This document shows, piece by piece, positions 1 to 9,002 of a stretch of 11,363 bases of DNA (the stretch's first letter is position 1; each line of letters begins with the position of its first letter). Both the position numbers and the translations under genes were made by a program. The notes under the pieces were generated by a model that ran no database searches, was not told where the DNA came from, and was given only the letters and a program-made list of their open reading frames with translations. The stretch is from the IMG/VR virus record IMGVR_UViG_2740892322_000008; one strand, given 5' to 3'. This stretch comes from a virus. Its lineage: Duplodnaviria > Heunggongvirae > Uroviricota > Caudoviricetes.

Positions 1-1143
1 CTATGCTGTTTTGATATCTACGATAATCCAGTCTTTACCACGATCATCATTGTATCGGTCGGTCATTTTTCTGGATTTATGGCCTAACAACTTTTGCGTA
101 TCCAGACCCTGTTCCCGATATAACCGTTCTGACAGAGATCGCTGCTCATGAAATGTGGGCGCAGTTCCTTGCTCCCATTTTATGCCACATTTTTCCCGGG
201 CCTTTTTAAAAGCCGTTGTCAGAGTATTTGCAGAAACCTGGTCTCCTCTGTTTGCTTGAGAGGTAGTGTGACGGTAATGGACCAGATATTTACTAACAAC
301 AGCATCCCTGCACTGAGATATAACTTCACGAAGGGTAATATTCAGAGCATCGCATTTCAGGTTAAGCGGAATAGCAAGTTTTGAACCGGTTTTTTCCTGA
401 GTAATGTGCAACATGTCGTCCCATATATCAGAGAATTTCAAATTGCAGATATCGCCTAAACGTTGTCCAGTAACAAGAGCAAGTAGCATGCCGCATTTTA
501 AATAGGGCTGCCGTCTGCTTACGCTGTCAAATATTGCCTGCCATTCGGGCAGTGACAATCTTTGGCGGTTTACTCGATTTCGCGGTTGTTTTGTTGCCTG
601 CGCTGGGTTAAATCCTGGCGGAACATGTCCTGCGTGTTGTGCTTCTTTGAAGACGTCGATCAACACCATTCTCACGACTTGCGCCATCCTGTTATGACCT
701 TCAGCCTTTACAGCATCAATTATTTCGGCAATATCAAGTGCGGTAATATCCTTGAGGTGTTGCATTCCACAATGCTCACGGAAAAGACGAATGGGTTTGC
801 CTTTTTGCCGATAGGAGTTGGGTCTTAGTTCATTATGTTGCAGCCTGTCCTCTTGGATAGAAATATATTTATCAAGCCATTCTGTCACCGTAATGTCTGA
901 GCGCCTGCCTTTCATTCTTTCCAGACGCTCATTGACGCTTAATATTTGTCTGGTACGTTGTTCAGCAATAATGGTATTTGCTTCAGTAGCAACTTGTTTT
1001 GCTTCATTCTCATCAGTTCCTAAGCTATGAAAACGACCGGATAGTGGATGTTTGTATTGCCAATATACCTTTCCGGTTCGCTTATCTAATTTGCAATATA
1101 AATTGGGTATAGAGATTTTGTGAGATCGGGGTCTAGCAGCCAT
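1..1143 (-). CDS. int: Phage integrase, lambda-family tyrosine recombinase (380 aa)
   Basis: Translation aligns along its length with lambda Int from memory (N-terminal arm-binding region PNLY...RTGK). Catalytic motifs present: TGQRLGD (Arg), FHEQRSL (His-x-x-Arg), LLGHKS (His), TDRYNDDRG (Tyr nucleophile). ATG at 1143..1141, stop TAG at 3..1; start lies 5 nt upstream of the xis stop. Confidence 0.93.
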   Translation of the reverse strand: MAARPRSHKISIPNLYCKLDKRTGKVYWQYKHPLSGRFHSLGTDENEAKQVATEANTIIAEQRTRQILSVNERLERMKGRRSDITVTEWLDKYISIQEDRLQHNELRPNSYRQKGKPIRLFREHCGMQHLKDITALDIAEIIDAVKAEGHNRMAQVVRMVLIDVFKEAQHAGHVPPGFNPAQATKQPRNRVNRQRLSLPEWQAIFDSVSRRQPYLKCGMLLALVTGQRLGDICNLKFSDIWDDMLHITQEKTGSKLAIPLNLKCDALNITLREVISQCRDAVVSKYLVHYRHTTSQANRGDQVSANTLTTAFKKAREKCGIKWEQGTAPTFHEQRSLSERLYREQGLDTQKLLGHKSRKMTDRYNDDRGKDWIIVDIKTA

Positions 1144-1369
1144 CAGCGATTATCCTTTGGAGTTTTGGGTTTGCGTTTATTGGGAGTTGCGGTTCTGCAA
1201 GCGTTCCTACAAAACGGGAATTTCGGTCAATCATCCAGTAGCGACCAACTTTTATAGCGGGTGGGGCCATCATTTTCCCTTGCGCGTATTTTTTCAGAAC
1301 TCGCTCACTTGGTGCTAAGTCCCCAAATTCTTCTTTAGCCCAGTCCTGTAAAGTGATTAGTCGAGACAT
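1133..1369 (-). CDS. xis: Excisionase (Xis-like, 78 aa)
   Basis: Small basic protein immediately upstream of and overlapping int. The LTLQDW...PP.IKVGRYW pattern resembles lambda Xis (LTLQEW...PPPVKDGREY). Strong SD GAGGAGG 6 nt upstream of the ATG at 1369. Confidence 0.8.
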   Translation of the reverse strand: MSRLITLQDWAKEEFGDLAPSERVLKKYAQGKMMAPPAIKVGRYWMIDRNSRFVGTLAEPQLPINANPKLQRIIADGC

Positions 1370-1508
1370 TTGTCCTCCTCTTAGCTGCTGAGGGAGTTTG
1401 TGACCGATATATCTGACATGATATTAAGCTCATGGCAGGTACATCTCTTGACTGGTCATAGAGATAAATTTAATGCTGAGAAATGCAGTATTGAATTTAT
1501 CAATTTTT

Positions 1509-1748
1509 CTATTTCCTGCGCATGTCACGTAACTTCTTAATGTGTTCTGCCGTTTCGATCTCTTCTGCTATCCGATCTGCATCAGCTTTATTCACAGGTT
1601 CAAAGTCATGATTAAAGCGGAACATGCTGGCGATACATGTTCTGCCTTTTCGGATGTAGTGAACTTTGTTGTGGGTAGAACGCAGGATTTTGCAGGGAGT
1701 GCCGTGGTGGTCGACGTACCAGGTGTTAGGGTCAATCACTCTGAACAT
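1509..1748 (-). CDS. Hypothetical small phage protein (79 aa)
   Basis: ORF co-oriented with the early-left operon; its start overlaps the 3' end of the upstream ASCH-like gene by 17 nt. No recognisable catalytic motif; possibly a DUF4222-type prophage protein, unverified. Confidence 0.55.
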   Translation of the reverse strand: MFRVIDPNTWYVDHHGTPCKILRSTHNKVHYIRKGRTCIASMFRFNHDFEPVNKADADRIAEEIETAEHIKKLRDMRRK

Positions 1749-6748: not shown

Positions 6749-7288
6749 ATGCAACCACTTACATACCAACAGACTAGCGGATTTAGCCCGACTGCGGTGA
6801 TAAATCGTTCTCAAACAAAACAGGTGCCAGGCCACGAAAAAATCCGTGATGCCGTCCGCGCCTGGTCGGCTGTAGATAATCAGGATGTCGTTGCCACACT
6901 CATTGTGAATGAGTATCTGGAGCAGGGCGGCGGCACCATCGATTTCCCTGATGATGTCAGCCGTGCACGCCAGAAGCTGTTCCGCTTCCTCGATAACAAA
7001 TTCGATTCTGAAAAATACCGAAATAACGTGCGTGAACTGACCCCGGCAATTCTGGCGGTACTACCGCTGGAATATCGCGGTTACCTGGTTGAGCAGGATA
7101 GCTTCATGGCTAGGTTGGCTGAAATGGAAAAGGAACTCAGTGAGGCAAAACAGGCTGTCATTCTCAACGCACCACGCCACCAGAAACTGAAGGAAATTAG
7201 TGAAGGTATTGTGTCGATGTTTCGTGTGGACCCAGATCTGGCTGGTCCATTGATGGCGATGGTTACTACCATGCTGGGGGCGATATGA
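6749..7288 (+). CDS. Putative CII-position regulatory protein (179 aa; possibly Phage_CP76/YdaT-like)
   Basis: Lies between cro and the O-like gene, where lambda has cII. Strong SD (AGGAG, 7-nt spacer). The family assignment rests on recollection of motifs (EYLEQGGG, LTPAILAVLP) and is unverified. Confidence 0.5.
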   Translation: MQPLTYQQTSGFSPTAVINRSQTKQVPGHEKIRDAVRAWSAVDNQDVVATLIVNEYLEQGGGTIDFPDDVSRARQKLFRFLDNKFDSEKYRNNVRELTPAILAVLPLEYRGYLVEQDSFMARLAEMEKELSEAKQAVILNAPRHQKLKEISEGIVSMFRVDPDLAGPLMAMVTTMLGAI

Positions 7289-7375
7289 CAGGTTCAGAAA
7301 TGGCGAAAGCCGGTCTGCTGGAACAGAACCGACTTTCAGGTGCAAATCGTAACACACTCATTGCGGGAGGAATTA

Positions 7376-8304
7376 TGGCAAACACTGCTGAGATATTCAA
7401 TTTTCCAGTGCCGGATGCGGCACAAAAGGAGCCGCGCGTGGCAGATCTCGATGATGGTTATACGCGCATTGCAAATGAGTTGCTGGAAGCTGTGATGCTG
7501 GCCGGATTAACACAGCACCAGCTTCTGGTCTTTCTGGCTGTCATGCGCAAAACATATGGCTTTAATAAAAAACTGGATTGGGTTAGCAACGAGCAACTTT
7601 CCGAATTAACCGGGATATTGCCGCACAAGTGTTCTGCTGCAAAAAGTGTTCTGGTAAAGCGTGGGATTTTTATTCAGAGCGGGCGGAATACCGGCATTAA
7701 TAATGTGGTCAGTGAATGGTCAACATTACCCGAATCAGGTAAGAAAAATAAAGTTTACCTGAAAGAGGTAAATTTACCTGAATCAGGTAAAAAAAGTTTA
7801 CCCAAATCAGGTAAAGGCGTTTACCCGAATCAGGTAAACACAAAAGACAAACTAACAAAAGACAATATAAAACCTTTTTCGTCCGAGAATTCTGGCGAAT
7901 CCTCTGACCAACCAGAAAACGATCTTCCTGTGGTGAAACCGGATGCTGCAATTCAGAGCGGCAGCAAGTGGGGGACAGCAGAAGACCTGACCGCCGCAGA
8001 GTGGATGTTTGACATGGTGAAGACCATCGCGCCATCAGCCAGAAAACCGAATTTTGCAGGGTGGGCTAACGATATCCGCCTGATGCGTGAACGTGACGGA
8101 CGTAACCACCGCGACATGTGCGTGCTGTTCCGCTGGGCATGCCAGGACAACTTCTGGTCCGGTAACGTGCTAAGTCCGGCCAAACTCCGCGACAAGTGGA
8201 CCCAACTCGAAATCAACCGTAACAAGCAACAGGCAGGCGTGACAGCTAGCAAACCAAAACTCGACCTGACAAACACAGACTGGATTTACGGGGTGGATCT
8301 ATGA
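7376..8304 (+). CDS. O: Replication initiator, lambda O-like (Phage_rep_O N-terminal domain; 309 aa from ATG 7375-7377, alternative start 7285)
   Basis: N-terminal domain DGYTRIANELLEAVMLAGLTQHQLLVFLAVMRKTYGFNKK... matches phage replication protein O. Contains the iteron origin in its central linker and ends overlapping the P start (ATGA). The ATG at 7375-7377 has SD GGGAGG 4 nt upstream; the ORF also opens at 7285, overlapping the upstream stop. Confidence 0.85.
7726..7880. repeat. Replication origin: five about 17-bp palindromic iterons (TTACCYRAATCAGGTAA) plus an adjacent AT-rich tract, inside the O gene
   Basis: Iteron cores at 7726-7742, 7755-7771 (degenerate), 7774-7790, 7798-7814 and 7821-7837, each an imperfect TTACC...GGTAA palindrome, followed by the A/T-rich 7839-7880. 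Same logic as lambda ori within O; the iteron sequence differs from lambda's. Confidence 0.75.
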
Positions 8305-9002
8305 AAAACATCGCCGCACAGATGATTAACTTTGACCGTGAGCAGATGCGTCGGATCGCCAACAACATGCCGGAACAGTACGACGAAAAGCCGCAGGTAC
8401 AGCAGGTAGCGCAGATAATCAACGGTGTATTCAGCCAGTTACTGGCAACTTTCCCGGCGAGCCTGGCTAATCGTGACCAGAACGAACTGAACGAAATCCG
8501 CCGCCAGTGGGTTCTGGCTTTCCGGGAAAACGGGATCACCACGATGGAGCAGGTGAGCGACGGAATGCGTGTTGCCCGTCGGCAGAATAGACCATTTCTG
8601 CCATCACCCGGGCAGTTTGTTGCATGGTGCCGGGAAGAAGCATCCGTTACCGCCGGGCTGCCAAACGTCAGCGAGCTGGTTGATATGGTTTACGAGTATT
8701 GCCGGAAGCGTGGTCTGTATCCGGATGCAGAGTCTTATCCGTGGAAATCAAACGCGCACTACTGGCTGGTTACCAACCTGTATCAGAACATGCGGGCCAA
8801 TGCGTTGACTGACGCGGAATTACGGCGCAAGGCTGCCGATGAACTGGCCTGTATGACCGCGCGAATTAACCGTGGTGAGGCTATACCTGAACCAGTAAAA
8901 CAACTTCCTGTCATGGGCGGTAGGCCTCTAAATCGTGCACAGGCTCTGGCGAAGATCGCAGAAATCAAAGCTAAGTTCGGGCTGAAAGGAGCGATGAAAT
9001 AG
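8301..9002 (+). CDS. P: Lambda P replication protein (DnaB helicase loader, 233 aa)
   Basis: Translation MKNIAAQMINFDREQMRRIANNMPEQYDEKPQVQQVAQIINGVFSQLLATFPASLANRDQNE... is essentially identical to lambda P as I recall it. ATGA overlap with the O stop. Confidence 0.95.
   Translation: MKNIAAQMINFDREQMRRIANNMPEQYDEKPQVQQVAQIINGVFSQLLATFPASLANRDQNELNEIRRQWVLAFRENGITTMEQVSDGMRVARRQNRPFLPSPGQFVAWCREEASVTAGLPNVSELVDMVYEYCRKRGLYPDAESYPWKSNAHYWLVTNLYQNMRANALTDAELRRKAADELACMTARINRGEAIPEPVKQLPVMGGRPLNRAQALAKIAEIKAKFGLKGAMK

Follow-up and report, generated by a model that had tools for sequence, protein, structure and literature searches.

We analysed a stretch of viral DNA of 11,363 nucleotides (nt), IMG/VR record IMGVR_UViG_2740892322_000008 (the window), which carries genes of a lambda-like phage in lambda-like order. 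According to the map of open reading frames (ORFs), Pfam and PHROG, the minus strand encodes int, xis, three small genes, homologues of orf61, orf63 and orf60a, exo, bet, gam, kil and the repressor gene cI, and the plus strand encodes cro, a ydaT-type gene, O, P and an inverse-autotransporter gene. The arrangement, int-xis-(ea/exo-xis genes)-exo-bet-gam-kil and then, around the leftward and rightward promoters, pL-cI-pR-cro-cII(analogue)-O-P, is lambdoid and collinear with the annotation of both lambda and phage 21. An earlier note on this DNA had described it as a mosaic of lambda-like and non-lambda blocks. Here we determined its block structure and coordinates, its domain assignments, the linkage of its replication iterons to the N-terminal domain (N-domain) of O, its genomic location and its prevalence.

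The window was compared with the whole of lambda (NC_001416) by BLASTN (word size 11, E ≤ 1e-5). Exactly two blocks, at 95–97% identity, were returned, and the remainder of the window had no DNA match. The blocks and their joints are:

2068–4859: lambda-like block A, equivalent to lambda 30402–33193, 96.6% identical over 2793 nt
7838–8992, plus strand: lambda-like block B, equivalent to lambda 39119–40273, 94.9% identical over 1155 nt
2067/2068: joint 1, ~10 nt from the stop codon of a TraR/DksA-family gene
4859/4860: joint 2, inside the 3' end of kil
7837/7838: joint 3, within O, at the base after the fifth iteron
8992/8993: joint 4, 10 nt before the stop codon of P; ren lies beyond it in lambda, phage 21 and phage PhiR47_2, and an autotransporter gene here

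Rather than diverging uniformly from lambda, the window is bimodal both in these alignments and at the protein level. Exo, Bet, Gam (98-residue form) and P are 98.7%, 99.6%, 95.9% and 97.4% identical to their lambda counterparts, respectively. Int and CI are 34.8% and 22.8% identical (the latter at E=0.045), Xis reaches only E=0.06, and Cro and the YdaT-type protein have no significant match among lambda proteins. By protein comparison and Pfam, the sorting of genes into lambda-like and non-lambda ones in the earlier note was correct for every gene that it named. Its description of the Red and P genes as lambda-identical is too strong for the DNA, which is 93–99% identical per 100-nt bin, with a single 84% patch at 8801–8900. 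That patch, in P, is at 84% against all four comparators within otherwise near-identical DNA. A second patch, at 1521–1593 in the DUF4222 gene, has 13 single-nucleotide polymorphisms (SNPs) relative to phage 21, again within near-identical DNA. From their sequence, both look like small gene-conversion tracts.

Block A comprises orf73/TraR (2058–2279; this is the TraR/DksA-family gene, which we take to be the equivalent of lambda orf73 in the exo-xis region), an orf61-like gene (2378–2593), orf63 (2670–2861), orf60a (2834–3016) and the Red module, in which orthologues of exo (3013–3693), bet (3690–4475) and gam (4481–4777) form a single leftward operon. Lambda thus shares with the window its gene order, the Red operon with the exo-xis genes, and the O C-terminal domain (C-domain) with P. 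In contrast, its int/xis and attachment (att) site, ea genes, kil-to-N region, rex genes, CI/Cro/CII, operators, and O N-domain with iterons show no detectable DNA similarity to the window. The joints coincide with gene or domain boundaries. Two of the three junctions proposed in the earlier note nevertheless have to be moved. It had placed one at an internal terminator (2332–2356), but the lambda border is at 2067/2068: the intrinsic terminator, a stem-loop followed by a T run (2339–2357, minus strand; fold z=-2.8), lies ~270 nt inside block A, with none of the listed lambda mismatches within it and the nearest at 2331 and 2361. It had placed another at the O/P boundary, where the actual border is within O. 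The joint at 8992/8993 was absent from its list.

The joint within O is the most informative about function, and the features around it are:

7285–8304, plus strand: replication initiator O (PF04492), with a non-lambda N-domain and a lambda-type C-domain
7726–7837, plus strand: five iterons with the consensus TTACCCGAATCAGGTAA, starting at 7726, 7755, 7774, 7798 and 7821
8301–9002, plus strand: P (PF06992)

Alignment with lambda O suggests that O may start at 7375. Overall, O is 68% identical to lambda O, with 49% identity in the first 115 residues and a difference at one position in residues 198–339. The iterons (0.01 matches expected by chance) are unlike lambda's TCCCTCAAAACGAGGGA and, with the N-domain at 49%, the window does not have the ori specificity of lambda. 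Block B opens with the A/T-rich ori segment ACACAAAAGACAA and continues through the C-terminal half of O and through P to 10 nt before its stop codon. An ori inside O, made of iterons and an A/T-rich region, has been described (PMC7466680). The window has the full lambda-type O/P module (a Phage_rep_O N-domain, iterons inside O, an A/T-rich segment and a P-family loader immediately downstream), and its O/P is the same replication system as lambda's with a different specificity. Because the joint directly follows the last iteron, the O N-domain and its iterons form one exchangeable unit, and the O C-domain and P form a second. Module exchange, offered previously to explain why the iterons differ while P is conserved, therefore holds, with the joint inside O rather than at the O/P boundary. 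In O hybrids of lambdoid phages, origin specificity (O N-terminus and iterons) is likewise separable from the P-interacting O C-terminus. An Rfam scan of the whole window (E ≤ 1) gave only a chance match to rliD, lying over the iterons.

We compared eleven O genes: those of the window, lambda, phage 21, BP-4795, Klebsiella phage GZ7, SEN34, P22 (gene 18), HK97, mEpX1, HK225 and Sf101. Eight phage records were picked by going down the tblastn ranking, since the best 80 IMG/VR loci all shared one N-domain. Among the combinations found are:

GZ7: N-domain 83% identical to the window's; iterons identical to the window's; C-domain unrelated, with an annotated DnaC-type loader
BP-4795 and phage 21: lambda-type N-domain (BP-4795 98% identical to lambda); lambda iterons; lambda-type C-domain, with P
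SEN34: N-domain 61% identical to the window's; iterons TTAGC...GCTAA; C-domain 83% identical to the lambda type, with P
P22 gene 18: N-domain 60% identical to the window's; same iteron arms (TTACC...GGTAA) with a shorter centre; C-domain unrelated, with the DnaB-like gene 12

Across these genes, iteron type tracks the N-domain, and the C-domain tracks the loader or helicase partner. The co-variation of iterons and N-domain that the earlier note had proposed to look for is thus present, with one exception to the graded pattern, to which we return below. Regardless of which domains flank it, ACACAAAAGACA or a close variant comes immediately after the last iteron in nine of the eleven genes, and this conserved A/T-rich motif sits exactly at the window's switch from non-lambda to lambda-like DNA. 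Such a segment at the joint fits recombination at short conserved sequences, and selection on random joints could give the same pattern. All 80 of the closest IMG/VR relatives (the best loci from a search with the O C-domain) carry the window's non-lambda N-domain, so the O chimera is old and widespread.

The left arm of the window belongs with phage 21. Besides the genes of block A it contains:

1–1143, minus strand: tyrosine integrase of the phage 21/icd type (Pfam Arm-DNA-bind_1 and Phage_integrase; ~99.4% DNA identity to phage 21 int); its stop codon is at the first base of the window
1133–1369, minus strand: excisionase of the phage 21 type (Pfam Exc, E=6.7e-6), collinear with phage 21 xis
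1509–1748, minus strand: DUF4222 gene (RefSeq name; phrog_285/phrog_625 for the DUF4222/ASCH pair)
1732–2058, minus strand: ASCH-domain gene (RefSeq name); with DUF4222 it occupies the position of lambda ea8.5/ea22

Positions 1–4859 are collinear with phage 21 (OL657228) in one piece, at 97.5% identity by BLASTN. Identity is 99.4% over 1–2300 (leaving aside the 13-SNP patch) versus 96.25% over 2301–4859, and the step is located between 2139 and 2321; the terminator at 2339–2357 therefore lies near, just to the right of, a subtle joint with respect to phage 21. When lambda is aligned with phage 21, the break likewise falls at lambda coordinate 30402. Given this break and the collinearity of the left arm with phage 21, the joint between non-lambda int/xis and lambda Red is a known lambda/21 difference and not one peculiar to this element. 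Phage 21 shares with the window int, xis, DUF4222, an ASCH-like gene, TraR/orf73, orf61/63/60a, exo, bet and gam, the same icd site with a phage-borne icd 3' end, and the O C-domain and P (94.4% identical). It differs in having lambda-type kil, cIII, ea10 and ral, its own N and nut sites, its own immunity (CI, a P22-like Cro, CII), and a lambda O N-domain with lambda iterons. The ASCH gene (1753–2052) shows single-gene presence and absence: it is present in the window and phage 21 and absent from phages PhiR47_2 and Lambda_4C10, with borders a few nucleotides from the start and stop codons of its neighbours.

With protein identities to lambda of 96–99.6%, the Red and O-C/P blocks might be thought to have been taken recently and directly from phage lambda by a non-lambda prophage. 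However, their DNA is 3.4% and 5.1% diverged from lambda, respectively. Across the Red block, 96 sites separate the window from lambda and 98 separate it from phage 21, 56 of these being common to both comparisons; lambda and phage 21 are 97.1% identical to each other, and the three are mutually ~3–3.7% diverged. They are thus about equidistant, so the donor was not lambda itself. In the O-C/P block, lambda and phage 21 share 97.9% identity, whereas their identities to the window are lower, at 94.9% and 94.4%, respectively; the combination of domains in O is also old and widespread. We accordingly give hardly any credence to direct transfer from lambda.

The genomic setting agrees with the phage 21-type integrase. 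In chromosome NZ_OY019088, of sequence type 131 (ST131), the stop codons of int and icd are 113 bp apart, and the last ~164 nt of icd together with the spacer to int match the icd-like segment and attP-int region of phage 21 at 96.6%. We conclude that the element is a lambdoid prophage occupying icd in the same way as phage 21, with an integration module of the phage 21/e14 type: phage 21-type Int and Xis, a prophage in the 3' end of icd, and an icd 3' segment supplied by the phage. Beyond P and the autotransporter gene, NZ_OY019088 has an insertion sequence (IS) element of the IS66 family, a hydrolase gene, ybcN-ninE-rusA-Q, lysis genes and terminase. Megablast placed at least 80% of the window, with identities reaching 99.9%, in 415 of 5,426 complete E. 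coli genomes, a set that includes many ST131 genomes. The prophage thus occurs in ST131 and many other E. coli lineages, and at a frequency of ~8% of complete genomes its annotation can be corrected widely. The window does resemble a short-read contig bounded by repeats: one end is the int stop codon, beside the duplicated end of icd, and at the other end ~70 nt match sequence next to the IS66-family element. Nonetheless, a chimeric contig assembled from several prophages of one genome has next to no probability as the source of the mosaic, as many closed chromosomes have this arrangement at 99.9% identity and the same joints occur in independently sequenced phage genomes.

The closest of these are PhiR34_1 (PV340559) and PhiR47_2 (PV340567), in both of which the arrangement of genes and domains is found. 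PhiR34_1 is 99.8% identical over the whole of 4860–7837 (kil-pL-cI-cro-ydaT-O N-domain) and spans window positions 1519–8992 in two pieces at 98.6%, with no match to 1–1518 (int and xis). Apart from the ASCH gene, PhiR47_2 matches the window as far as 8992 and shares its int/xis, immunity, O and P; it has an annotated GevT/GevA pair inserted at 5610–5613, next to cI. Lambda_4C10 has kil, the C-terminal part of cI, ydaT, O and P as in the window, but a different cI N-terminus, rightward operator (OR) and cro; its CI is identical to the window's from residue 86 and ~40% identical in the first ~45 residues. Among the 80 IMG/VR relatives, alignment ends recur at 5655/5656, the cI stop codon, in 36 and at 5610 in a further 7, at 6211 and 6748 in 33 each, and at 8992 in 54. 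As these breakpoints are identical from one relative to the next, the joints recur at gene or domain boundaries, as in lambdoid phages generally (PMC9836094, PMC3945230).

Segment 6212–6747, replaced in 33 of the 80 relatives, covers the N-terminal helices of CI (its first ~45 residues), OR/pR, cro and the boxA spacer between cro and ydaT; the C-terminal part of CI and ydaT-O-P are near-identical. On its sequence, this replacement reads as a domain-level immunity swap within cI, parallel to the swap within O. Downstream of the cI stop codon (5534–5656) is a cargo slot, which holds a two-gene insertion in PhiR47_2 (GevT/GevA) and Lambda_4C10 and is empty in the window; lambda has rexAB at the equivalent position. 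The classical lambdoid hybrids (imm434, imm21 and the O hybrids) and the modular genome hypothesis established the immunity cassette as an exchange unit. In lambdoid phages interdependent genes such as cI and cro are transferred together (PMC9836094), and their mosaicism has been attributed to relaxed homologous recombination (PMC3945230). The exchange units of the classical hybrids are the same as in the window, with no difference in principle (surveyed in PMC9836094 and PMC3945230).

The immunity region between the leftward operator (OL) and O is non-lambda throughout:

5655–6344, minus strand: CI-type repressor with HTH_3 and S24 peptidase domains (Pfam)
5516–5533, minus strand: intrinsic terminator downstream of cI (fold -21.1 kcal/mol, z=-3.8)
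5310–5410, minus strand: OL/pL control region with GTTGTT/AACAAC repeats; pL core 5369–5339
6345–6448: OR/pR region; pR core 6389–6418 on the plus strand, with a perfect 21-bp palindrome, GGTTGTTgactaaaAACAACC, at 6388–6408
6449–6679, plus strand: Cro analogue of the YdaS type (PF15943, E=4e-17; phrog_35)
6749–7288, plus strand: YdaT-type protein in the CII position (PF06254, E=9e-30; phrog_163 'CII-like transcriptional activator', E=6e-67)

The translation of CI contains SAG cleavage-site, GDSMS and VKRL motifs, which suggest RecA-stimulated self-cleavage. The pR and pL cores have 28 of 30 nt in common, GTTGTTGAC.A.AAAACAAC.ATAGTTTTAA. Of the 19 GTTGTT/AACAAC hexamers in the window, 8 fall in the two ~110-bp control regions, which make up ~2% of it (binomial P ~2e-9), and a near-palindrome with 8-nt spacing lies at 5350–5369. 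The half-sites named in the earlier note are thus an enriched motif of the control regions, and the operator architecture built from them remains putative. A fixed-spacing operator, GTTGTT-N7-AACAAC, was considered and is unsupported: it has one perfect match only, the second site having 8-nt spacing.

The Pfam assignments also bear out the proposed YdaS-type Cro and the non-lambda nature of the protein in the CII position, and the YdaS-family helix-turn-helix and YdaT-family genes are divergent from the repressor gene, as in immunity regions of the YdaS/YdaT type. YdaS and YdaT have been argued, with structural work, to be equivalents of Cro and CII (PMC5917428, PMC9986795), and YdaT to be functionally equivalent to CII (PMC9986795). 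The Rac and CP-933P prophages (RacR-YdaS-YdaT) likewise have a YdaS-type Cro analogue and a YdaT-type CII analogue downstream of pR (PMC5917428, PMC9986795), but the window's repressor is a full CI-like protein with HTH and S24 peptidase domains. The YdaT site of CP-933P, TTGATTN6AATCAA, is matched in the window at chance frequency only, by two sites with 2 mismatches each (4480–4497 and 6421–6438; 1.19 expected by chance).

To the left of pL, the gam-to-pL interval (4778–5340) is ~0.55 kb, compared with ~2.5 kb in lambda, and its shortness had been noted correctly before. It contains only a kil gene of the KilR type, and one further element lies downstream of cro:

4853–5059, minus strand: KilR-type cell-division inhibitor (phrog_294, E=1e-37; RefSeq name)
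6693–6704, plus strand: rrn-type boxA, GCTCTTTAACAA, an exact 12/12 match to the rrn consensus in the nutR position, directly after cro

Lambda homology stops 4–6 nt inside the 3' end of kil, which is otherwise non-lambda. The interval might have arisen by deletion in a decaying prophage, with N, cIII, ral and sieB lost, rather than being a different module; its length, the lack of an N gene and nutL, and the IS element elsewhere in the ST131 copy would be in keeping with that. We consider such a deletion very unlikely. The kil gene is of a different family, with no match between the KilR-type protein and lambda Kil; remnants of N, cIII and ral were not detectable in the window (sieB is also absent from the pL-proximal segment); and the same short interval is found in PhiR34_1, PhiR47_2, Lambda_4C10, 4A7 and 1W, deposited as complete phage genomes, several phages with this interval having a named laboratory host.

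The two early operons have no recognizable N/nut antitermination system, neither an N-family protein nor boxA-boxB nut sites at pL and pR. There is no N ORF between pL and kil, the pL transcript has no boxA and no nutL, and folding of the pL leader is no better than that of shuffled sequence (z=+0.4), which gives no sign of a put- or nut-like RNA. On the right, no boxB-like hairpin follows the boxA downstream of cro (the segment folds at z=-0.7). The boxA itself is at the same place in 43 of the 80 related loci. An exact boxA after cro, with no N, nutL or boxB, makes antitermination of the rightward operon by host NusB/NusE a possibility. We see an outside chance that early operons of this immunity type run without a phage antiterminator, the rightward operon recruiting the rrn-like host NusB/NusE machinery, or using it to resist Rho, through boxA alone. 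A 31-codon ORF in the pL leader (5168–5263, minus strand) encodes the arginine-rich sequence VKRTRERR. It shares the reading frame of kil, and in PhiR47_2 this frame stays open as far as kil. We rejected it as a hidden N: all five differences from PhiR47_2 alter a residue (four substitutions, and Gln in place of the window's TAG stop), so the ORF is probably non-coding.

Taken together, these results make it very probable that the window represents half of a lambdoid prophage sitting in the 3' end of E. coli icd, the half devoted to integration, recombination, immunity and replication, and that it is a typical mosaic of co-adapted units from the shared lambdoid pool. Seven such units may be proposed: (1) phage 21-type int, xis and attP, with icd as target; (2) an exo-xis region of the phage 21/lambda type with the Red operon; (3) a short pL-proximal segment with a KilR-type kil only and without N, cIII, ral and sieB; (4) a non-lambda immunity cassette of CI, OL/OR operators on GTTGTT/AACAAC and a YdaS-type Cro; (5) a YdaT-type CII analogue; (6) origin specificity, from the O N-domain and its five iterons; and (7) lambda-type helicase loading, from the O C-domain and P. 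On the model of the established lambda pathway, phage 21-type Int and Xis would act at icd. CI would bind the GTTGTT/AACAAC operators and repress pL and pR, and would presumably be cleaved on SOS induction. The genes kil, gam, bet and exo would be expressed from pL, and those for the YdaS-type Cro, YdaT, O and P from pR. The O N-domain would bind the five iterons, the adjoining A/T-rich segment would unwind, and the lambda-type O C-domain would recruit P, which would deliver host DnaB. A crossover at the conserved A/T-rich motif after the iterons would swap origin specificity and leave the O-P interaction undisturbed.

Several points weigh against parts of this account. SEN34 and HK97 have the iteron arms TTAGC...GCTAA in common at only 42% N-domain identity. 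The operator structure is deduced from a perfect palindrome, a near-palindrome and hexamer enrichment, and all binding and regulatory functions named above are likewise predictions from sequence. Delayed-early transcription without N is not accounted for. Finally, the ST131 chromosomal copy may not be inducible, given the IS66-family element in its nin region.

The arrangement is already known, and the window is one more natural combination of textbook lambdoid modularity. It has little weight as a discovery; it is a clean worked example in which the joints are mapped to the base. It gives a sequence-level view of how replication specificity and helicase-loader compatibility reshuffle independently, with crossover at the conserved A/T-rich part of ori that separates the iterons from the O C-domain, and it makes recurrent cargo slots recognizable downstream of cI and after P.

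The slot after P is occupied in the window by an intimin/invasin-like inverse-autotransporter gene, which starts at 9252 in the region 9003–11363 (IAT_beta, E=1.5e-101; Invasin_D3; Big_1) and is preceded by a low-GC spacer, with ~35–42% GC in the bins spanning it. It occupies the exact position of ren in lambda, phage 21 and PhiR47_2; PhiR34_1, Lambda_4C10, 4A7 and 1W also have ren after P. None of the 40 matches listed from the phage collection extends beyond 8992. The ST131 chromosome has an autotransporter of 1302 amino acids, with ISEc23 and a gene for an alpha/beta hydrolase beyond it. The window's copy lacks one ~357-bp Ig-like repeat and a further ~1.57 kb, and its final ~70 nt lie beside the IS element; this may reflect either collapse of the contig end or a true deletion. 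The autotransporter gene is carried by ~9 of the 80 IMG/VR relatives.

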